Below, piece by piece: positions 40,231 through 64,000 of a DNA stretch of 64,000 bases. Numbering within the stretch: position 1 is the stretch's first letter; each line of letters starts with the position of its first letter. The DNA comes from an uncultured Verrucomicrobiae bacterium (GTDB lineage: Bacteria > Verrucomicrobiota > Verrucomicrobiia > Opitutales > JABDGR01): the NCBI GenBank assembly GCA_963765205.1, contig CAVXVB010000009.1, forward strand, positions 1,408,001 to 1,472,000, in the 5' to 3' direction. A model generated the notes under the pieces. It searched no databases and was not told the origin of the DNA. It saw only the letters and a list, made by a program, of their open reading frames with translations. Both the position numbers and the translations under genes were made by a program.

Positions 40231-40341
40231 GAAAATGTTTGCGCCGGGCACCCTTCTGTATCCACATTCATTAAGCAACGCGGTGGATTTACTCCTTTGT
40301 TCCTTTGTGCCTCAGTCACTTTGTCCCTTGCCCCCCTCCCC

Positions 40342-41403
40342 ATGCTCGCCGTCGCCTCCTCTGGAACCTTGCTGGGCATCCATGCCCATGCGGTGCAAGT
40401 CGAGGTTAACACCGGCGAGGAAGGCAAGCCGGAGACGGTGCTCGTCGGCTTACCGGACGCGGCGGTGAAGGAATCGGTGAACCGCGTGTGGTCGGCGCTG
40501 CACAACTGCGGGTTTCGCGCGCCGGCGACCAAGACGACCATCAACCTCGCGCCCGGCGATTTGCGCAAGGAGGGGCCGCTGTTTGACTTGCCGATGGCGC
40601 TGTCGGTGCTCGCCGCGACGGGGCAACTGGCGCCGGAGAGTTTGCAGCCCTACCTCATCGCCGGGGAACTGAGCCTGTCGGGCGGAACGCGGCCGGTGGT
40701 GGGCGGGCTGGCGCTGGCGCTGCTTGCGCGGCAACTGGGCAAAGCGGGTGTGCTGCTGCCCGCCGCCACCGCCGAGGAGGCCGCGCTGGTGGACAAGGTG
40801 CCCGTCCACGCCGTTGCGTCGCTCGACGAAGCGGTGCGGTTTTTGAACGGTGAAAAATTCTTGCCGCGGCTCGACCCCGCCGCCAGCCCGTTTCGCCGCC
40901 CGCCGGACACGCGGCACTCGGTGGATTTCTCGGAAGTCAAAGGCCAACACGCCCTGCGCCGGGCCGTCGAAGTGGCCGTCGCCGGCGGACACAATTTGCT
41001 GATGGTCGGCAGCCCCGGCTCGGGCAAAAGCATGATCGCGAAACGCATCCCCACCATCATGCCGGAGCCGACGCTCGACGAATACTTGGAACTGCTCGCC
41101 ATCCAGTCGGCGGCGGGCGCGTCGCTCGCGCCGGAGAACCGGTGCTTCCAGCGGCCGTTCCGCGCGCCGCACCACACCATCAGCGATGTCGGGCTGCTCG
41201 GCGGCGGGGCGATTCCCGGCCCCGGCGAAATTTCCCTCGCCCACAACGGCGTGCTGTTCATGGACGAGTTGCCCGAGTTCAAACGCTCGACCCTCGAAGT
41301 GCTGCGCCAGCCACTCGAAGACGGCGAAGTGAGCATCTCGCGCGCGGCGGGCAAAATCACCCTCCCCTGCGCCTTCATGCTCGTCGCGGCGATGAACCCC
41401 TGA
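40342..41403 (+). pseudogene. comM: comM/YifB Mg-chelatase-like helicase, 5' part, interrupted by an integrated element
   Basis: [56 protein letters not shown]; ends abruptly at LVAAMNP* where CPCG normally follows. Confidence 0.95.
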
Positions 41404-43134: not shown

Positions 43135-44058
43135 ATGAAAAGTTTCTACCGCGTCATGTTGGGGCAACAAAGTGTTCATGCCGCAGAGTGTTTCGCCGGC
43201 AACTTCATTGGAACCGATTTCGGCATCATCCAAGATCTCTCTCCCAAGCTGCCAGAGGACTGGCGGGCGTTTAACAAGGAGTTCATTCCTATTTACCTGT
43301 CCTCGCATCCCGATAAAACTAGGATCGGTGCGGGACTGGCCTGCGGCGCTTTGTGGACGGTTTCCAAAGGGATTCAGAAAGGCGACATTGTTCTGTGTCC
43401 CGACGGGTCGGGCAAGTATCGAGTAGGTGAAGTTACAGGTGATTACTACTTTGAACCGGGCAAGATTTTATTCCATCGGCGGCCTGTTACTTGGCTAAAT
43501 ATGACCATAGACAGGGCCAGCATGAGCGAAGCATTGCAAAACTCTACTGGGGCAATCGGCACGGTCAGCAACATCACAAAATATCGCGATGAAATTGAGA
43601 AGTTAATCGGAGGCGTTTCTGCCCCAAAACTCATTTCCACAGATGCAACCATTGAAGACCCATCCGCCTTTGCTTTGGAGGAACATTTGGAGGATTTTTT
43701 GGTAAAAAACTGGCCACATACCGAACTAGGTAAAGATTATGACATTTACGAAGAGGACGGCGAAAAAGCCCAACAATACAAAACCGATACCGGCCCCCTA
43801 GATATTCTGGCCATCAGCAAAGACAAAAAACGCCTGCTCGTAGTGGAGTTGAAGAAAGGCCGGGCAAGCGATACCGTAGTTGGTCAGACACTCCGATACA
43901 TGAGTTATGTTCAAGAAGAACTGGCCGAAGAGGGCCAGACAGTTATGGGTATAATCATTGCCTATGAGGATGACAAAAAAATCCGACGCGCCCTAACAAT
44001 GACGCCCAATATTGTCTATTATCGCTACCAAGTCAGTTTCAAATTAACAAAGGGCTGA
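43135..44058 (+). CDS. NucS/DUF91-like PD-(D/E)xK endonuclease with an N-terminal PUA/EVE-like domain
   Basis: GDIVLCP...VGEVTGDYYF...HRRPVTW N-domain; ALEEHLEDFL...LDILA...VVELK...VGQTLRYM nuclease domain. Confidence 0.8.
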   Translation: MKSFYRVMLGQQSVHAAECFAGNFIGTDFGIIQDLSPKLPEDWRAFNKEFIPIYLSSHPDKTRIGAGLACGALWTVSKGIQKGDIVLCPDGSGKYRVGEVTGDYYFEPGKILFHRRPVTWLNMTIDRASMSEALQNSTGAIGTVSNITKYRDEIEKLIGGVSAPKLISTDATIEDPSAFALEEHLEDFLVKNWPHTELGKDYDIYEEDGEKAQQYKTDTGPLDILAISKDKKRLLVVELKKGRASDTVVGQTLRYMSYVQEELAEEGQTVMGIIIAYEDDKKIRRALTMTPNIVYYRYQVSFKLTKG

Positions 44059-47484: not shown

Positions 47485-48174
47485 TTAAGGTTTGTCTTTG
47501 CCGTCAGCAGTTACGCCGCCATACCTGAACTGCCCGAATGCTGCCAGTGCCAGAAAAATAACCGCAAGCCAAAATCCTTCCTTTAAGTCCATTGTGATCA
47601 TTCCGCCAGCTTGTTGAGCCATCTCGTTCTCCATTGCGCTTTTGGTAACGAACAATGCCACGACCCCACCAATGCCGAACCCTCCACTGACTAAGCTCGT
47701 CGAGCGCCTGCGATTCAGTGCAAGCAGTAAACCGGCCGTCGTCAGACCGAATGCTACAATCGCCGCCGGGTAATGATATGGCGCAATGTTTAGAGCTTTA
47801 TCGCCCAAAATCAATTGCTGCCCCGTAAGGCTAATGCTCCCAAATGAAGAAAATTCAAAGAAAGGCAGCGTAAAGCTTAGCCCCGCAAGAATAAAGAATA
47901 CCCAAAACAGCCCTCCAATCTTTTGCATATCCGCCCCCGAAAGTTTTTCTTTGCCAAGTGACGCGTCAACAACCGGCACGCTTGATGTAGGGGCTGATGT
48001 TCCGGCAATTGCAACGACAGTTTTGCACGTCACCCACTCGACTGTGTTATCCAAACGCACCGGCGTTTCGTCAGTCAAAATGCCCGCTTGACGCAGTTGT
48101 GCAATGGCGGACATCGGGAGTGGGCCGATCTCGCGATTTTCGGCGTCCCGATAAAAATAGTTTGGGGTGCTCAT
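47485..48174 (-). CDS. GYF_2 (DUF4339)-like domain membrane protein
   Basis: YFYRDAENREIGPLPMSAIAQLRQAGILTDETPV...W N-domain plus 4 TM helices. Confidence 0.7.
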   Translation of the reverse strand: MSTPNYFYRDAENREIGPLPMSAIAQLRQAGILTDETPVRLDNTVEWVTCKTVVAIAGTSAPTSSVPVVDASLGKEKLSGADMQKIGGLFWVFFILAGLSFTLPFFEFSSFGSISLTGQQLILGDKALNIAPYHYPAAIVAFGLTTAGLLLALNRRRSTSLVSGGFGIGGVVALFVTKSAMENEMAQQAGGMITMDLKEGFWLAVIFLALAAFGQFRYGGVTADGKDKP

Positions 48175-48207
48175 AGTTTTGGGGTATTTGCATTGCGTTT
48201 TTCGACA

Positions 48208-48975
48208 TCAGATAGGCGGAGGCACCGCCTTTAATGCGACGCTGCCGGTTTTATAGAGTTCTCCAAAAATTGGACTGTATTCTTGCGTTTTGAGGAGCTT
48301 AATTCCCTTTGCAGATGTTACGTCCTCGATTTTCTTTTTCACCACATCAGCGACTACGCTTTGATACATAATTCGCGTGTCTTGGCGATAATAGGTGTCT
48401 TTCCGAAAATATTTTCCATACAAGGCACCGATCACCGGTGAGTTGAGCAACGTGGCGTCCAAATCGCGTAGGCCAACACCAACCGCATTGCGTAAGAGCA
48501 CCACCGCAACGACGAGCGCCAGCAGAAGTAACACCGGTCCGGCATAGTATCCGAACCATTGTTGACTGAATCTAAAAGCAATTCCGACGCCGAAAAGCAC
48601 GATAAGATACTGCCAAAATGGCACAAAAGCTGGCGTTTCTACAAATCGGTAGGAGAAAAAATAGTTGGTTCCGAACGGAGCCGCGCACACGTCAAAGATC
48701 AAGCGTTCGCGCTTCATCCGCAGATATTCCCGCTTGTCAGACAAAAGCCCACCTTCCGACAGATCAACGCGGGTGATTTCAAGTCCAGGGACTTGCTGTG
48801 CTTTAAGAATATTTTCAACTTCCGCGTAGAAATCTTTGGAGGAAAGCTGGCAGTCAGGAATAAGCGTGCACCAGTGATCAATGACTTCCGGCCCAATGAG
48901 TTTTGCCGCCCTCTCCCAGCCGCTTTCAACGCTCTGCGTAAGAAATCCGGGAAGGATGTTTTGGAGAAAGCCCAT
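48208..48975 (-). CDS. Hypothetical membrane protein upstream of the large ATPase
   Basis: Soluble N-domain (HWCTLI...EGGLLSDKREYLR...CAAPFG), 2 TM, TYYRQDT tail. Confidence 0.7.
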   Translation of the reverse strand: MGFLQNILPGFLTQSVESGWERAAKLIGPEVIDHWCTLIPDCQLSSKDFYAEVENILKAQQVPGLEITRVDLSEGGLLSDKREYLRMKRERLIFDVCAAPFGTNYFFSYRFVETPAFVPFWQYLIVLFGVGIAFRFSQQWFGYYAGPVLLLLALVVAVVLLRNAVGVGLRDLDATLLNSPVIGALYGKYFRKDTYYRQDTRIMYQSVVADVVKKKIEDVTSAKGIKLLKTQEYSPIFGELYKTGSVALKAVPPPI

Positions 48976-49066
48976 GGGGTTAAGGGTGTTATGTAATTTC
49001 TTGGCAATCAAGGGTCTTTTCCCCTTCTCTGTCAACACTGATTGATACGGCCATTAAAAGCGTTCC

Positions 49067-49221
49067 TGTGGACAACCCTTAACGTTGTCCACACTTTCCC
49101 CTATCCATCGCCTATAAGGCGGACATTAAGATTTTGTTATATTAGATTAAGATTAAGATGCGATGGCCTACCTATACCCTATCCGTAGGGTATGGATTCT
49201 CCATCCATCAGTTTATCCACA
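49067..49221. promoter_or_regulatory. Origin-like region: DnaA-box-like 9-mers, palindrome and AT-rich repeats
   Basis: TGTGGACAA (49067) and TTGTCCACA (49085) inverted; perfect TTATCCACA (49213); ataccctatccgtagggtat (49174-49193); ttagattaagattaagat. Confidence 0.5.
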
Positions 49222-49261
49222 CCCCCTCCCTTTGACACGATTTGCGGAAAGTGTATATTTA

Positions 49262-49317
49262 ATTCACTCATGGCTTCGGCCTCCGAGATTCCCCTCCGCA
49301 AGGAGGGGTTTCGTTTT
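49262..49317 (+). ncRNA. Candidate small structured RNA convergent on the MazF-like toxin
   Basis: TTGACA (49232)-N16-TATATT promoter-like site, then ggcTTCGgcc and cccctccGCAAggagggg hairpins with a T-rich tail. Confidence 0.5.
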
Positions 49318-49699
49318 ATAGGAGTCGAATCAATTGATTTCGCAATCTTGCAAAATCGTCCTCAGACATAACGCCCACTTTTCTTCCGAGACGTTTTGGA
49401 GAAAGAATTCTCATTTGTGAAAGGATGGCTTCGTTATCCTTGTCGGCATGTTTGAAGCGGAAGTAGGATTTGCCAGTGTGACTCTTTGACGTAATCGGAA
49501 TTCCCCAAAACATATTTTCGTTGAAGGCTTTGAATATCAGCACTGGCCGAGCAAAGTTTTCATTTTTACCGTCCTCTTCCGAGCCTACATTTGCTCCGAT
49601 TGAACAAATCCAAATCTCGCGCGGATGCCAAAATACCTTCTGCTTATTATCGTTGAGTTTGATCTTGAGAGCGTTCCAATTCGGAAAATCTTTTTGCAT
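49316..49699 (-). CDS. PemK/MazF-family toxin-like protein (orphan)
   Basis: REIWICSIGANVGSEEDGK...RPVLI...GIPITS...ILSQMRILSPKRL. Confidence 0.85.
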   Translation of the reverse strand: MQKDFPNWNALKIKLNDNKQKVFWHPREIWICSIGANVGSEEDGKNENFARPVLIFKAFNENMFWGIPITSKSHTGKSYFRFKHADKDNEAILSQMRILSPKRLGRKVGVMSEDDFARLRNQLIRLL

Positions 49700-49711
49700 C
49701 GGATTATTTTA

Positions 49712-50204
49712 TCACCGTCCTTTAATCGAATCCAATGTCGGCAGTATTTCACGGATACTCCGCAGCCCATTTGACCGGGGCGAATCCTGCATTCGTTTTT
49801 CCCCCGATGCTGACATCCCTGTGCCCATGTCATAAAGCAACTCAGGTTCTACGGAAAGTTTTGCCACTATCGCGCGCGGAGCTTTTTTGAGTTCCGAGGC
49901 AATCCCTTGTCTTACTTTTGGATTTTGAATAGCCTGGTATTTGATGAAGTTGACGACGGCAACCCATCCGTCAGCGTAGATAACCTTTCCGTCTGCTATA
50001 AACTTGTCTATTATTTCTTGAATTTCCCCTTCTGGTATCCCAACGTCAAAAGCTACCCGCCGTAGGGGTAGCTCGTAGACGCCGGAAATATTCGTGAGAG
50101 GGTTCGTTAAGAAATACAGGAAGACAAGCTTTGTTGTTGGAGAGAGTCGTACTGATGTACGAGTCATCCCAAAATTTCGTATTTACGATTCTTTGCTTTG
50201 CCAC
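49712..50204 (-). pseudogene. Phage/plasmid-type replication-initiator N-terminal domain protein with a 1-bp frameshift
   Basis: VAKQRIVNTKFWDDSYI (one frame) + extra A + VRLSPTTKLVFLYFLTNPLTNISGVYELP (next frame); span 493 bp = 3n+1. Confidence 0.7.
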
Positions 50205-50289
50205 TGTTTTTCGATTAACTAATAATCTGTGCGCGGTCGGTAAACGCCCAGCGAAGCCAGGCCGACCCGCCGGGGTCACGGCGCACTTG

Positions 50290-50472
50290 TTAGAACGGAA
50301 TAATCTTTTCTCTCGATTGAGAGTCAATGATTATTCCGTCACCTTCTGATATAATGCCTTCGCGAAGAAGGAGTTTTTGCACCCTTCGCAATGCCCGAAG
50401 TTGTTTTCGCAACATCAGGCAACGGTTTTCTCTTTTTATAGGCACATACCGAAATCTCACTCGTTCCGACAT
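50290..50472 (-). CDS. Small basic hypothetical protein
   Basis: 60-aa ORF co-oriented between the recombinase and the Rep-like gene. Confidence 0.4.
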   Translation of the reverse strand: MSERVRFRYVPIKRENRCLMLRKQLRALRRVQKLLLREGIISEGDGIIIDSQSREKIIPF

Positions 50473-50494
50473 AGATCATTTGATTTTAACGAAT

Positions 50495-50528
50495 AAAAAA
50501 ACGACCAGATTTCTCTGGTTCGTTTTTT
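50495..50528. terminator. Probable bidirectional terminator
   Basis: aaaaaaacgaccaga-tttc-tctggttcgtttttt. Confidence 0.55.
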
Positions 50529-50624
50529 GACTTCGTGAAAGCCATATTGTGCGACACCAGAGATAGACCAATAATAAAGGAACCGAGATTGTTGTGCAAC
50601 CCTCTCCCCTGTGGAAAACTCCGC

Positions 50625-51587
50625 TTACGCAGCCGTCGCAAGTATCTGCCTGAATGGACTTTCACATCCAGAAAAACTTCGCCGGAAAGCTTCCTCGTAT
50701 TCTGTGCGGCTCAATTTTGTGTAGTGCGCAATTGTGTGCGGCGTGGTATGTCCCACCAAGACCGCAATGATCGCATCCGGGACACCTAGTTTTGCAACCC
50801 GGTGAATGAATGCGTGCCTGAATGAGTGCGGAGTGACGTTGTTAGCAATTTTTGCCGATTGAGCTACATAGGCAACAATCCTTTGCATTGATCGGTTTGT
50901 AAGCCGCAGTGAAGAATTTCTTGATGCACCGAGGAAAAGTGCATCGCTATCAATTTTATTTTTGATCCGCCCATGCAGATAATTTTGAAGGTCTTGCTCA
51001 GTGTCAGGATTCCAGAACACACGGCGGGAATGAATCGTTTTTTCGGTTCGTATGGTTGCGGACATATCATCGTGAATGTCGTCGAGGTCGAGGGAGCAAA
51101 GCTCGCCCACTCGCAACCCTGTATCGTGGAGCATTCTGATAATGAGGCGATCTCGTAAAGCGTCAGGATGCTTTAGCTTTAGCGTTTGAATCATCGCAGC
51201 ATATTCATCCTCTCGGATCGAATAGTGAGAATTTGAGTATGCACTTGGCACACGGACGAGGTGGAGTGGCAGGGTTATTCTCCCCTGCTCTTTGAAGTAA
51301 CGGAGATAATTGCGAATGATCGTCATCGCATACCAGATGGTTTTTTCCGAGTGAAGGCCAGAAATGGAGTGCAAAAAATTCGTGACATCCGTAAGCGCAA
51401 TATGCTCAGGCGGTTTGTTTACAAATTCTTGGAATCGCTTGATCCATATCCTGTATGCTTTGCTCGCAGATTTTGTGTAGCTTGCTTTCCATGTGAGATA
51501 TTCTTCTGCCAAGGTCATATTCTGATTATTTTGGACAAAAGAATAGCTGCCTAAGAACTCACGGGCCGGTGACGTGATAGTGTTCAT
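50625..51587 (-). CDS. Tyrosine recombinase (XerC/D-like)
   Basis: DTGLRVGEL, TEKT, TPHSFRH, LVGH, TIAHYT catalytic set; start 51587 or 51518. Confidence 0.88.
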   Translation of the reverse strand: MNTITSPAREFLGSYSFVQNNQNMTLAEEYLTWKASYTKSASKAYRIWIKRFQEFVNKPPEHIALTDVTNFLHSISGLHSEKTIWYAMTIIRNYLRYFKEQGRITLPLHLVRVPSAYSNSHYSIREDEYAAMIQTLKLKHPDALRDRLIIRMLHDTGLRVGELCSLDLDDIHDDMSATIRTEKTIHSRRVFWNPDTEQDLQNYLHGRIKNKIDSDALFLGASRNSSLRLTNRSMQRIVAYVAQSAKIANNVTPHSFRHAFIHRVAKLGVPDAIIAVLVGHTTPHTIAHYTKLSRTEYEEAFRRSFSGCESPFRQILATAA

Positions 51588-52134
51588 TTTTTTGGTTTGA
51601 TTATACGAGTAAAGAAAGTCGCCATTTTTAGAAGAACTGATGTCGCAACAAAAATTCCATGCCAAGAGGGCATCCATGTTGCGGTTGTATGGCGACTGAA
51701 AATCTGACAATGAGCATCGAGTAAAACGAAGCTGCATTGTATCAGACCCATTGGCACTCATCAGAAAAGTTTTGGTTTACCGGCCTCGCTTTCCTTTTTT
51801 TGCCAAATCGAAACCACCCACCTGCTACGGCTTTCCGGCCTCGCAAAGTGGGTGGTCACATAAAGTTTACCACACACGTTCATTGCAGCCGGAAAGCTCT
51901 TGTGGAAAATCCCCAAGACGCTCCTAATGGAGCGCATCGCAATGTGTGTTTCGATACTGTCTATGCTACTCCACACCCCCGCACCTTGTCAAAGTTCGCC
52001 AAGGTGCGATAATGGAAGCACGGTTTTCTCTAGCTGCGATTTGCAGCCCTACAAAAGGGTATACAAAACTGCTATGTATACCCTCTGCCCTATCGGGCAC
52101 CCGAAATACGTTATCACGTATGGGTTTACTGGCT

Positions 52135-56264: not shown

Positions 56265-56936
56265 ATGAAACAATATCGCTTTCTCAGTATTATTACAATA
56301 TTATACATCACTTTTCAGCTAGTTTCTGACGTAACGGCTGGAAAACTGATTAGCTTCTTTGGCTTTCCGGTTTCGGTAACGGTCTTGTATTTTCCCGTTA
56401 CATATATTATCGGCGATATTCTCACGGAGGTTTATGGCTACTCCCGGGCGAGGAAAGTCGTATGGGAGGTGCTACTTGCGTCTGTGCTCGCAGGTTTAGT
56501 TTATCAGCTTGTTGTTTACTTACCCGCAGCCAATGGGTTCAATGCGAACGATGCATATGTAACAGTGTTTGGTTCCGTGCCGAGAATTTTGCTTGGCGGT
56601 TGGATCGCAGTCTGGGTTGGCGGGATTCTAAATGATTATGTTTTGGCCAAAATGAAAGTATGGACAAATGGGAAATATCTTTGGACACGGACCATTGGTT
56701 CTACAATTGTAAGTGAATTTGCAAATACAGCCCTTTTCTACACAATCGCGCTGTCTGGCATTTTGCCAAGCAACATCTTGGTTCAGGCAATACTTACAGG
56801 GTGGATGATCAAGGTTGCTGTTGAAGTTATTTTTACTCCGTGGACTTATTGGGTTGTCGCCAAACTTAAACGCCTTGAAAACGAAGACTACTACGACCGT
56901 ACAACTAATTTTAATCCGTTTATATTTAAATCCTGA
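56265..56936 (+). CDS. yhhQ: Queuosine-precursor transporter (VUT/YhhQ family)
   Basis: FPVTYIIGDILTEVYG...ARKVVW, VPRILLG, LWTRTIGSTIVSEFANT, KRLENEDYYDRTTNFNPF. Confidence 0.9.
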   Translation: MKQYRFLSIITILYITFQLVSDVTAGKLISFFGFPVSVTVLYFPVTYIIGDILTEVYGYSRARKVVWEVLLASVLAGLVYQLVVYLPAANGFNANDAYVTVFGSVPRILLGGWIAVWVGGILNDYVLAKMKVWTNGKYLWTRTIGSTIVSEFANTALFYTIALSGILPSNILVQAILTGWMIKVAVEVIFTPWTYWVVAKLKRLENEDYYDRTTNFNPFIFKS

Positions 56937-61426: not shown

Positions 61427-62518
61427 TTATGTGCCTTCAATTACGGCCTTTTCATGTCGACTTAATAGTGAGTTGAATTCTGCTTGGATTTTCAGCTTTT
61501 CGATCAAGAAATCCACCCAGGCTTGCGTATATCCGTAGTCGTTGTGACGCTTGTCATATATGCAATATTTCGAGTTGGTTTGATAGGGGTCGGAACTACC
61601 GCTCTTTGGCCTGACTTTGTACTTGTTCCAACATAGATAATGCGTGTATGTAGTGAATTTGCTCTTAGACCGCATATCTGTTATTTGCACTCGCGGGTTC
61701 CCGAGTCCTTGTTGAACTTTGCTTACCACCTCGCTAATCTTTAACACCTCAAAATTGGAGACAGGCACTTCTTTGAATTTAACCATCGCAATTAGTGGAG
61801 CAATCCGTTCCTTTTGTTCATTCGTAAGTTTGTCATAATGCACAAATTGAATTGCTAGGGCATTTTGGCTCTCGTGATTTGCAACTTGTATCAAAAATGC
61901 CTTGAAGGAAAATTTTCCGCTCGCAGCAAGTTCAGGGGAAATGGTTGACCGAAATTGCTGAATAAAATCCATTGCCGCTTTGGTTTCAGGACTTCTTTTA
62001 ACTGCGTCAGCAAGGTTTTTTAAATCAGGAAATATTTGTAATGAGAACGACAAACTTTCCCTAATACGGTATTTAGGTCCGAACTCCTTTTCCAAAAAAT
62101 CATCGAAGTTTAGCAACATAGCTTGGCACTCGCCAAAAATCGTCGCGTCGAGTTCAGGCATAGATCGGTGTTCGATTTTGTTACGAAGAGGAATAAAAAA
62201 TTCCAAATTCTTGCGCACTGGGTTCATAGTGTCGTTTACATAGTACTGCTTTAGGCATTCATCTAATTCCCAGTAGCGGTAATCGCCCTCAATTTTTTCA
62301 TATCGTCCATTTTGCTTTTTGTAAAACGGTTTTCGTGAACGTCGGAAATAAGTTGCATGAAACAAAGCTGTCCAGGCGATTACCATCAATGTAATGTACC
62401 CGCCTGACTTAAATTTTATAGCTGGCTTATTGTAAATTTCTACCGCAAGCAACGCTGAATCCCTCGCTTTTTCGAGCGCGCCCTTAACTTGCTTAGGTAG
62501 TCCTCTCATTCGACGCAT
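61427..62518 (-). CDS. DUF3644-like protein with a HEPN-type RxxxxH motif
   Basis: ALLAVEIYNKP...IAWTALFHA N-terminus; LRNKIEH; C-terminal YTQAWVDF. Confidence 0.75.
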   Translation of the reverse strand: MRRMRGLPKQVKGALEKARDSALLAVEIYNKPAIKFKSGGYITLMVIAWTALFHATYFRRSRKPFYKKQNGRYEKIEGDYRYWELDECLKQYYVNDTMNPVRKNLEFFIPLRNKIEHRSMPELDATIFGECQAMLLNFDDFLEKEFGPKYRIRESLSFSLQIFPDLKNLADAVKRSPETKAAMDFIQQFRSTISPELAASGKFSFKAFLIQVANHESQNALAIQFVHYDKLTNEQKERIAPLIAMVKFKEVPVSNFEVLKISEVVSKVQQGLGNPRVQITDMRSKSKFTTYTHYLCWNKYKVRPKSGSSDPYQTNSKYCIYDKRHNDYGYTQAWVDFLIEKLKIQAEFNSLLSRHEKAVIEGT

Positions 62519-62560: not shown

Positions 62561-63448
62561 TTAGAGCGCAAATCGTGAATAGACAACACCTTTCGTTGCT
62601 GCACATTCGATGAGAAAACTTAAACCCTCTTGAAGACCCATCCTACCTTCAAAAACATGTGTCAAATGTTCTCCATCCATGAGAATGATGCGTGAGCCTG
62701 GTTCGTTAAAGTGTGCAATAACTTCTGGGCTGAAGCCGGCCACCGACACAAACAGCCCGCGTGTGCTTTGTAGCTTGCGGGAAACATCATCTTTGAATCC
62801 TCCAATCTCTTTTTGGGTTGGAGGCTCATTTCGCCATCGAGCCTCGACAAGATAATCGAATCCTTCAAAGCGAAAATGCCCGTCTATTTGTGCCGTGTCA
62901 GTTCGATATGACGGCGTGTATTCAATTTCGGAGAGAAGAAATAGCTCCTTAAGAATCGCCTCTAATTCGTAGCCAGCTTTTTGTCGGTTAACTTCTGCAA
63001 ATGTTTGACCAAACCGCACCCTTAATGTCTGTAGTTTTTGGCTGCGTTCCTGCGTTAACTTTACACGTGCTTCGCCCTGCTTACGCCTCTGCATTTCATC
63101 TTCTTGGACACGCTGCTTTACTAAATGGCGATCAAGGGCTGATTGCTTAAGATCACGAAGCGCAGCAACTGCTGCATCGCGGTCTTTGACATCCTTATCG
63201 GAAATGTCTCGTAGATTGCAAAGCGCAGTCAGAATCTTCCGTTGAAGCACACAGCCCTCCTTTGTTCCGGCTAGTTCCAGCAATAACTGGCGTCCCCAAA
63301 CAAACTTCGCCAAGTGAGAATGTCTTTCAGCTAAAGTGCGGTCAAGGCCAGCAGAAACAAGAAATGCGATGACACCATCCTTATAGTGGAAGCATCGTCC
63401 GAAGCACTGCACTATTTTTTCGGATATGTCGTGTGGTAGCGGTTCCAT
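62561..63448 (-). CDS. Mrr-like restriction endonuclease domain protein
   Basis: GYELEAILKELF...QIDG...YLVEARW...TRGLFVSVAGFS...IILMDG, preceded by a helical/coiled-coil N-domain. Confidence 0.8.
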   Translation of the reverse strand: MEPLPHDISEKIVQCFGRCFHYKDGVIAFLVSAGLDRTLAERHSHLAKFVWGRQLLLELAGTKEGCVLQRKILTALCNLRDISDKDVKDRDAAVAALRDLKQSALDRHLVKQRVQEDEMQRRKQGEARVKLTQERSQKLQTLRVRFGQTFAEVNRQKAGYELEAILKELFLLSEIEYTPSYRTDTAQIDGHFRFEGFDYLVEARWRNEPPTQKEIGGFKDDVSRKLQSTRGLFVSVAGFSPEVIAHFNEPGSRIILMDGEHLTHVFEGRMGLQEGLSFLIECAATKGVVYSRFAL

Positions 63449-63456
63449 TTTGAAAT

Positions 63457-64000
63457 TTATAGTTCCTCATTAAAGGCGCGGTGGAGGAGGGATTGGAAAA
63501 GATTGTCCAGCCGGTTCCGGCTGGCAGATTGCGTGGATTCCAGTTCACGGATTTCTTTCACGCGGTCGGCAAACTCCTTTTGTAGAGCGAGTGGCGGAAG
63601 CGGAATCTTTACGCTGCCGACATTTGATGGACTCACATTGGGTTGTGCGCTACCTGCCGCTTCACCGATTAGCGTGCGCATAACGTTTGGCAAATTTAAT
63701 GCTGCAAAAAGAAACTGTGCATCAAGTTGGTTTTTGTCTCGAATGAAAAACTTGCCGACGCGCTGATTCAGTAAACTTGGAGTGTCGGCAGTTCGAACCA
63801 TCCCTAGTTTTCCAGTTGTAGCTCCTGACATAGCAATCAAGATGTCATTGGGTGCCAGTTGATATGCTGGATATTTATTGAAATGAGTTTCGGGTAAATA
63901 AGCAGTCCCTGCTTCGAACACTAAATTTTGGCCATCAAAGTTTGAAATTCTAACCAAGCGCACACCCGAAGCAGTATATTCGCTACTTTTGAAAGCGTAA
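63457..64000 (-). CDS. hsdS: Type I restriction-modification specificity subunit, 3' part
   Basis: DILIAMSGATTGK, LNQRVG, GSAQPNVS, IPLPPLALQKEFA, LFQSLLHRAF; open to the window edge. Confidence 0.92.
   Translation of the reverse strand, partial: YAFKSSEYTASGVRLVRISNFDGQNLVFEAGTAYLPETHFNKYPAYQLAPNDILIAMSGATTGKLGMVRTADTPSLLNQRVGKFFIRDKNQLDAQFLFAALNLPNVMRTLIGEAAGSAQPNVSPSNVGSVKIPLPPLALQKEFADRVKEIRELESTQSASRNRLDNLFQSLLHRAFNEEL

Follow-up and report, generated by a model that had tools for sequence, protein, structure and literature searches.

The stretch of DNA analysed here (64,000 nucleotides, hereafter the window) comes from an uncultured Verrucomicrobiae bacterium. Its minus strand carries, at 49316-49699, a gene encoding a 127-amino-acid toxin of the PemK/MazF fold, recognized by PF02452, by an AlphaFold2 model searched with Foldseek and VIA, and by conservation. 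A predicted small-RNA gene is located on the opposite strand, directly past the toxin stop codon, and the two genes converge. The small-RNA gene has a σ70-type promoter (49232-49259, + strand) with a −35 box TTGACA (49232-49237), a 16-nt spacer and a −10 box TATATT (49254-49259). This promoter scored 11/12, the best of four sites in 47500-51000, a region in which the number of promoter-like sites was at chance (4 versus 4.3 expected). The predicted +1 opens a 6-nt single-stranded leader, ACUCAU (49266-49271, +), in agreement with the leader length of homologous loci and the start-site spacing of the RNA CJpv3 (both below). The leader is followed by a 3-bp hairpin P1, GGC-UUCG-GCC (49272-49281, +), which covaries in homologs, and by a UC-CGAG junction with the hairpin P2, which has a GCAA loop and is terminator-like in the class of the window RNA (49282-49313, +). 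The core of P2, CCCCUCC-GCAA-GGAGGGG, occupies 49291-49308 and is lengthened by CGAGA/UUUCG to 49284-49313. A U tail (49314-49317, +), the predicted 3' end of the RNA, overlaps the toxin TAA (49316-49318).

The promoter, both hairpins and the U tail at the toxin stop had been picked out in an earlier sequence-only reading, and all are present where it placed them. That reading put the RNA at ~55 nt; a small RNA is indeed predicted, with its length corrected to ~52 nt, from 49266 to about 49317. It also saw no ORF inside. Two short overlapping frames do cross the RNA gene, one at 49179-49301 on the minus strand (40 aa) and one at 49192-49371 on the plus strand (59 aa); neither gave any sign of being a gene.

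The segment 49262-49320 folded with z = −3.07, a value equalled by one of 200 shuffles. When the 64-kb window was searched with a descriptor of promoter, leader and two hairpins, 24 matches were obtained at promoter scores of at least 8/12, and this locus was unique at 10/12 or more. CM R1 gave 53 bits at the locus, its sole match in the host genome. No Rfam family reached its gathering score in the window; the best overlapping one, whalefall-1 (16.2 versus 37 bits), was dropped as an identity for the RNA on account of this weak match. P2 and the U tail score as an intrinsic terminator in the window. On the minus strand, the interval from the toxin stop to the RNA promoter contains no predicted terminator, so the toxin mRNA probably spans the whole RNA gene and could form an antisense duplex with the RNA.

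An upstream gene (49712-50206, −) ends 12 nt before the toxin start, and the two are likely in one operon. The sequence-only reading had taken this gene for Rep-like; no Pfam or NCBIfam match to it was found, and it is not MazE-like. Its true start is probably near 50206. At position 50154 the window has one base more than the contigs from runs X1, X2 and X10, and the apparent frameshift shortens the gene; this is probably an assembly error, since contigs in three of the four runs lack that base. Contigs from other runs bridge the region, which ruled out a chimera at the locus. Run X3 has a 1244-base stretch in place of 49196-49250; this variant, whose spacer differs, keeps a TTGACA −35 box at unchanged spacing, as X4 does too, and the listed differences leave the RNA itself unaltered in X2, X3 and X4. 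The contigs of X10, the one RNA run considered, do not cover the small-RNA locus.

The locus lies in an integrated element of ~39 kb that splits comM (C9:1449402 / 1488599), extends from 41375 to the window end at 64000 and runs past it. It encodes a serine recombinase at its left end, coupling proteins, Replic_Relax, a primase and defence-like genes. One part of comM is at 40297-41403 and the other is beyond the window end. Related elements were found in the same-genus genomes G157 and G158. Cargo genes of the element include a Vut_1 (YhhQ-like) transporter gene at 56265-56936, strong PADLOC candidate defence matches at 43135-44058 (PDC-S02, E 6e-153) and 61427-62518 (PDC-S19, E 5e-141), and further restriction-like genes at 62561-63999. 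A lower-GC block at 49050-51761 holds the toxin module, a gene of no known family and a tyrosine recombinase; within a host of ~60% GC, it appears to resemble Patescibacteria-type DNA. The block also has a hairpin at 49162-49205 and what we take to be DnaA-box-like motifs, an inverted pair at 49067-49093 and another at 49213-49221.

The toxin subfamily and its neighbouring genes

PF02452 was the sole family match of the toxin (E 1e-9), and no match to the ToxN, CptN or TenpN sequence families was found. The AlphaFold2 model (pLDDT 86) has a helix at residues 5-17 followed by the MazF fold, as expected for the MazF/PemK-like protein proposed beforehand. The best structural matches were type II MazF proteins, led by MazF-mt1 (Z 14.8, rmsd 1.8, 100 aligned), with S. 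aureus MazF (Z 14.3), Kid (12.6) and CptN (Z 11.1, rmsd 2.5, 102 aligned) further down and ToxN and AbiQ at Z 6.8 each. PDB sequence matches were to MazF only. The kinship with type III ToxN suggested in the sequence-only reading therefore holds for the MazF/Kid-like fold that they share, but MazF is the nearer relative. The structural matches cover model residues 18-127 and leave residues 1-17 outside. The extra N-terminal helix, in which W8 and K12 are near-invariant, characterizes the subfamily. R51 (99%), T70 (88%) and P52 are conserved as well; R51/P52 and T70 presumably correspond to the catalytic Arg and Thr of MazF. The median net charge across the toxins is +8.

The toxin had 255 homologs at E ≤1e-3, 120 of them listed, and two collection scans by peptide pattern gave an estimated ~940 and 2100 stretches, most of which encode a relative. 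The subfamily was found mainly in Patescibacteria and Campylobacterota. Strong matches (>100 bits) were present in 14 of 151 sampled Patescibacteria genomes and any match in 21, and 12 of 151 Campylobacterota genomes had matches at E ≤1e-10, each sample including its own centre genome. At this threshold, none of the 200 other genomes searched from the host's phylum had a match. Canonical MazF genes are present in some of the same sampled genomes. Among viral contigs, a protein scan gave one viral locus only; 120 viral loci from a 15-base pattern scan lacked the toxin and were treated as chance.

The sequence-only reading had noticed no MazE/AbrB-like ORF beside the toxin, and this extends to the subfamily. 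Of 54 small upstream ORFs (45-150 aa, at most 120 nt away, at 51 of 129 loci), none matched an antitoxin Pfam family, and there was one recurring pair only and no recurring family. Upstream genes are unrelated from locus to locus, with no shared 5' region, and at 28 of 129 loci the toxin starts at most 35 nt behind an unrelated ORF of at least 100 aa.

In 14 longer proteins the toxin domain is fused to other proteins, mostly housekeeping enzymes: CysN, RpiB, NUDIX, HisRS, AlaRS, MurB, and GDP-fucose synthase-like and transketolase-like enzymes (L348, L356, L346; P0121-P0134). Four of the fusions to the first six partners are C-terminal and lack a Met where the two parts join. Part of the fusions may merely reflect read-through combined with an internal start, since a Met lies close by at both CysN loci. 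The RNA is kept beside all three fusions for which DNA context was available, two with CysN and one with a sugar-nucleotide enzyme. In N-terminal fusions, the linker resembles an antisense translation of the RNA gene.

The position of the near-invariant W8/K12 helix outside the structural matches, the tolerance of fusions to essential enzymes and the PADLOC candidates on the element would fit a protein that largely silences itself (for example by the N-terminal helix) or is no toxin, and that forms an RNP serving some other function, for instance as a sensor nuclease triggered by phage with the RNA as its cofactor. We consider this improbable: the RNA has no variable guide-like segment, and the replacement of the pVir homolog by a type II pair, like the cited antitoxin role of cjrA (both below), fits plain addiction.

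Linkage and structure of the small RNA

For the homologs, 160 loci were picked by protein similarity alone: the 80 top-scoring loci from each of two scans, of which one scan gave 79 distinct ones, and one viral locus. Together with the window they yielded 136 non-redundant loci, each with at least 150 nt downstream. The descriptor required a promoter of at least 8/12, a +1 seven bases after the −10 box, a leader of 4-8 nt, a stem of at least 3 bp and a stem of at least 4 bp. The layout was found at 124 of the 136 homolog loci (five of these matches parsed in the wrong register), compared with 9 of the 382 ends of other ORFs at these loci, and a promoter of at least 8/12 at 131 of 136. The 12 loci missed by the descriptor carry the element by CM or by eye, in extended or displaced forms; insertions at L143 and L187 shift the RNA by 230-300 nt.

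The descriptor was designed after the first locus set had been seen, and an out-of-sample test was therefore made on Patescibacteria genomes. From 38 matches in 151 genomes, 30 loci were obtained: 18 full length, 7 canonical-MazF-like and 5 others. Among the full-length loci, two of which were in the first set, 15 of 18 matched the descriptor and at two more the element was visible by eye; no RNA was found near the full-length subfamily gene of L309. The layout was present at none of the seven canonical MazF-like loci. The five others were fragments, short or spurious, and one broken subfamily gene had kept its RNA. By eye, the RNA was present at all 11 of the 11 extra paralogs (two being identical copies), the canonical MazF copy of L149 was without the element, and by eye the element was present at 13 of 16 Campylobacterota loci. 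In a quick protein tree of 116 rows, weakly resolved with 50 of 113 forks open, RNA subtypes tracked protein clades across host lineages.

CM R1 was insensitive, being a class A/B model with 38 candidates scored per genome. It gave 10 matches in 5 of 151 genomes: seven at a toxin stop, one orphan copy ~900 nt from a toxin and two short chance matches. It missed five plasmid or phage loci, CJpv3 among them. As in the window, no Rfam family was found at gathering score at 15 homolog loci, which answers the Rfam comparison that the sequence-only reading had called for.

Several loci depart from a single toxin and RNA. A second promoter and RNA of another subtype stand in tandem, without a toxin of their own, at L173:3474-3542. 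An orphan RNA copy at L302 (G074 C1:255126-255180) faces a miaA-like gene. Two to four divergent toxin-RNA cassettes are clustered at L189, L177, L125, L235, L244, L249, L258, L194 and L220, each cassette with its own RNA subtype. In the C. jejuni prophage CJIE4-3 (L284), the cassette is flanked by the terminase and portal genes, and the RNA predicted on the other strand has three hairpins. Campylobacterota loci have intermediate forms with two or three hairpins.

The leader is 6 nt long in 103 of 124 loci and A-rich, with the consensus A-C/U-A-A-A-U/C; ACA is its commonest start. Leader positions +2 to +6 hold 0.84-1.32 bits compared with 0.09-0.70 in the adjacent discriminator. Mutual information between protein columns and leader bases gave no interpretable signal. 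When 50 class A/B RNAs were aligned with MAFFT, two-sided changes were seen at all six pairs of P2 and at one pair of P1. The alignment fitted to the model, with 67 distinct matches, had 92.7% of its cells paired, and 7 of its 10 pairs changed on both sides. Kinship inflates both counts. Of 117 loci, 87 have G-C as the middle pair of P1 and 28 have C-G; the exchange comes up repeatedly, in several clades of the quick tree. The element downstream of the homologs is thus conserved and its stems covary, as the sequence-only reading had proposed to check.

P1 ranges from 3 to more than 10 bp in homologs, and its stems and loops are wholly different in distant members. It is longer by tens of bases in L203, L188, L185 and L186, with leader length and junction unchanged; L203 and L188 represent a long-form subtype of ~100 nt with extended P1 and branched P2. 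UUCG is the P1 loop in 90 of 124 loci, GNRA loops are also common, and other loops are used as well. Some RNA classes lack CGAG, and some variants lack UUCG. The loop identities stressed in the sequence-only reading are thus present and common, but they are not essential. A pseudoknot between the P1 loop and CGAG was also considered. The UUNG/CGAG bases are 91% paired in the 50 class A/B RNAs, with no two-sided change and one pair mismatched in 18 of 50, so that compensatory changes give the pseudoknot no support in these RNAs.

The sequence-only reading had conceded that the element might be only a terminator. Under this explanation it would be a mere terminator or incidental promoter, and the toxin a true orphan neutralized by a MazE encoded elsewhere. 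P2 with its U tail does score as a terminator in the window, and some of the sampled genomes do have canonical MazF genes. However, the promoter, leader and P1 are conserved, and the terminator has the wrong orientation for stopping the toxin mRNA: P2 was predicted as a toxin-strand terminator at 0 of 124 loci. A U-rich tail follows only 69 of 124 P2 hairpins, other RNA classes having a separate third, terminator-like hairpin at the end, and the homologous RNA CJpv3 is abundant. For the family, this explanation is largely refuted; we regard it as very improbable. P2 overlaps the toxin coding sequence at 31 of 124 loci, and a crude scan predicted a toxin-strand terminator ahead of P2 at 14 of 124.

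The pVir homolog of Campylobacter jejuni

The PemK protein of C. jejuni 81-176 plasmid pVir, WP_011117588.1, is 38% identical to the window toxin over 102 aa, and it scored 106 bits on the subfamily HMM compared with 39 for canonical MazF. According to Dugar et al. 2013 (PMC3656092), the Northern-positive RNA CJpv3 is 77 nt long and runs from 31119 to 31043 on the pVir minus strand. Its TSS step height is 16164 compared with 28 for the toxin gene, or ~580 times (PMC3656092). A transcript, which the sequence-only reading had asked for, is thus recorded for this homolog and begins at the position predicted for it (tables S5 and S12 of PMC3656092). CJpv3 is convergent and single-copy and ends 5 nt from the toxin stop. 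Its +1 is seven bases after the −10 box, exactly where the family rule places it, and it folds into a 6-nt leader and three hairpins. CM R1, which was built on class A/B RNAs only, has no match to CJpv3, so the link is made by protein homology, position and architecture and not by RNA sequence.

The pVir PemK is the only annotated toxin on the 81-176 plasmid, a type II pair (hypothetical+YafQ) occupies the same slot in IA3902 pVir, and the TADB antitoxin entry is 78 nt. For these reasons the PemK/CJpv3 locus is very probably the published cjpT/cjrA pair. This pair of C. jejuni 81-176 pVir was reportedly described by Shen et al. 2016 (Mol Microbiol 101:909); we take cjpT to be the name of the toxin paired with cjrA. 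An RNA antitoxin therefore has precedent. Three texts, PMC10470494, PMC7826846 and bioRxiv 2020.01.02.893479, class cjrA of strain 81-176 among the type I antisense RNA antitoxins, and PMC7826846 places it on pVir.

Proposed mechanism and comparison with known systems

Linkage, covariation and the transcribed homolog RNA support the proposal of the sequence-only reading that a single-copy, convergent RNA is the antitoxin, and we consider it highly likely that the small RNA is the antitoxin of the toxin. Our main reading, to which we assign a probability of roughly 0.55, is that the MazF-fold toxin faces a separately promoted gene for a predicted two-hairpin RNA, which is likely its antitoxin and probably acts by binding the protein, as in type III systems.

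Protein binding is favoured over antisense silencing. In type I antisense control, the RNA would pair with the 3' end of the toxin mRNA, perhaps from its free 5' leader, and lead to decay by RNase III; convergent Gram-positive type I loci work by RNase III decay of paired RNAs. Several observations suit this mechanism. The convergent layout touches the toxin stop codon, the mRNA and the RNA probably overlap fully in the window, and P2 falls within the coding sequence at the 31 loci mentioned. The type I label given to the probable homolog cjrA in the papers cited above counts against protein binding as well, as does a fold nearer to type II MazF than to ToxN. The large excess of CJpv3 suits antisense control too, although it fits type I and protein-binding type III alike. 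We nevertheless regard antisense silencing as rather unlikely. The length and bases of the leader and the junction are held while the distal stems drift, and a cis antisense RNA would be complementary whatever its sequence, so conservation of sequence and geometry exceeds what cis complementarity needs. The 3' target would be transcribed later than the coding region, and the toxins have no 5' region in common by which translation might be held back until then. Many toxins are encoded as tail genes or as fused domains, C-terminal fusions to enzymes included. The RNA persists where it has been displaced by 230-300 nt, and 14 of 124 loci have a predicted toxin terminator ahead of the conserved core. 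Most loops are UUCG or GNRA, types poorly suited to kissing interactions. The median net charge of the toxins, +8, also suits RNA binding.

In the favoured protein-binding mechanism, the toxin would be made from whichever transcript the cassette has landed in, and the strong promoter would supply the RNA in large excess. The protein would likely grip the 6-nt A-rich leader together with P1, the junction and the base of P2, with the leader lying in the single-strand RNA groove; the basic N-terminal helix of the subfamily is a candidate for an additional RNA contact. In ToxIN, the RNA touches the protein with its single-stranded overhangs and with the foot of its folded core (PMC8860590), and by analogy the conserved parts of our RNA family correspond to these contacts. 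E. coli MazF cuts before ACA (PMC7781912), and the ACA start of the leader may be likened to this cut site. When the supply of RNA stops, whether the element is lost or a phage shuts off transcription, the RNA would decay and the ribonuclease would be freed, resulting in addiction or abortive infection. The pVir swap and the defence-rich setting suggest one of these as the physiological role.

More tentatively, at somewhat less than even odds, we propose for the family as a whole that a MazF fold has exchanged its protein antitoxin for a ~50-nt, single-copy, unprocessed RNA whose leader mimics the product in the active groove. The family would then be an intermediate between type II and type III and a candidate for abortive infection in Patescibacteria, and cjpT/cjrA would be reclassified. 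An RNA of ~50 nt would then, to our knowledge, be smaller than any other RNA antitoxin that binds a protein.

Neither Rfam 15 nor the literature searched (most subscription papers and bioRxiv supplements were outside the search) yielded an account of the family or of the fold of its RNA, and passages of PMC11768034, PMC5430854, PMC5749857 and PMC11658703 gave none either. What we found undescribed is the breadth of the family, the RNA structure and the likely mechanism; the RNA antitoxin itself has the precedent given above. These toxins are annotated as type II though no antitoxin adjoins them, and the small RNA supplies the missing partner. How RNA-inhibited toxins arose from MazF becomes directly testable: the protein has 127 aa and the RNA ~50 nt, natural RNA subtypes are at hand for tests of cross-talk, and for one homolog there is a cultured host with public dRNA-seq. 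The work also provides an RNA family missing from Rfam 15.

Like type II mazEF and pemIK, the family has the PemK/MazF fold, PF02452 and type II proteins as best structural matches. It differs from them in the extra N-terminal helix, the linked RNA and the upstream side, where no MazE, PemI, AbrB or RHH gene was found. With the canonical type III systems toxIN/abiQ and cptIN it shares a MazF/Kid-like fold and a non-coding RNA partner; tenpIN is a further type III system. Type III RNAs likewise combine a folded core with an adjacent A-rich single strand (PMC8860590). However, type III antitoxins are tandem pseudoknot repeats that lie upstream in the same operon and are cut out by the toxin (PMC8860590), whereas the RNA described here is present in one copy, lies past the toxin gene on the other strand, is transcribed from a promoter of its own and consists of hairpins, a pseudoknot being unsupported. 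No tandem repeat array was found in 48950-50700.

AbiF is a ribonuclease toxin restrained by a dedicated structured RNA, as is proposed for the toxin of the window, and its non-coding RNA antitoxin was reportedly described by Zilberzwige-Tal et al. 2025; AbiF has a HEPN fold, and its RNA is unrelated to that of the window. The Rfam pemK RNA motif is a structured RNA near pemK-family genes, upstream and on the strand of the gene. The window RNA, in contrast, is downstream on the opposite strand and below the gathering score.

The nearest known system is cjpT/cjrA, which has the same N-helix MazF subfamily, a convergent small RNA at the toxin stop and a 6-nt leader followed by hairpins. Its RNA, probably CJpv3, has 77 nt and three hairpins compared with ~52 nt and two in the window, and shows no CM similarity. 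The pair was published as type I antisense, and we did not find its membership in a large family with conserved RNA structure recognized. The layout that the sequence-only reading held to be unlike type II and canonical type III is indeed unlike both, but it is not unprecedented: the family is neither type II mazEF nor canonical type III, and the window module is a distant member of the cjpT/cjrA kind.
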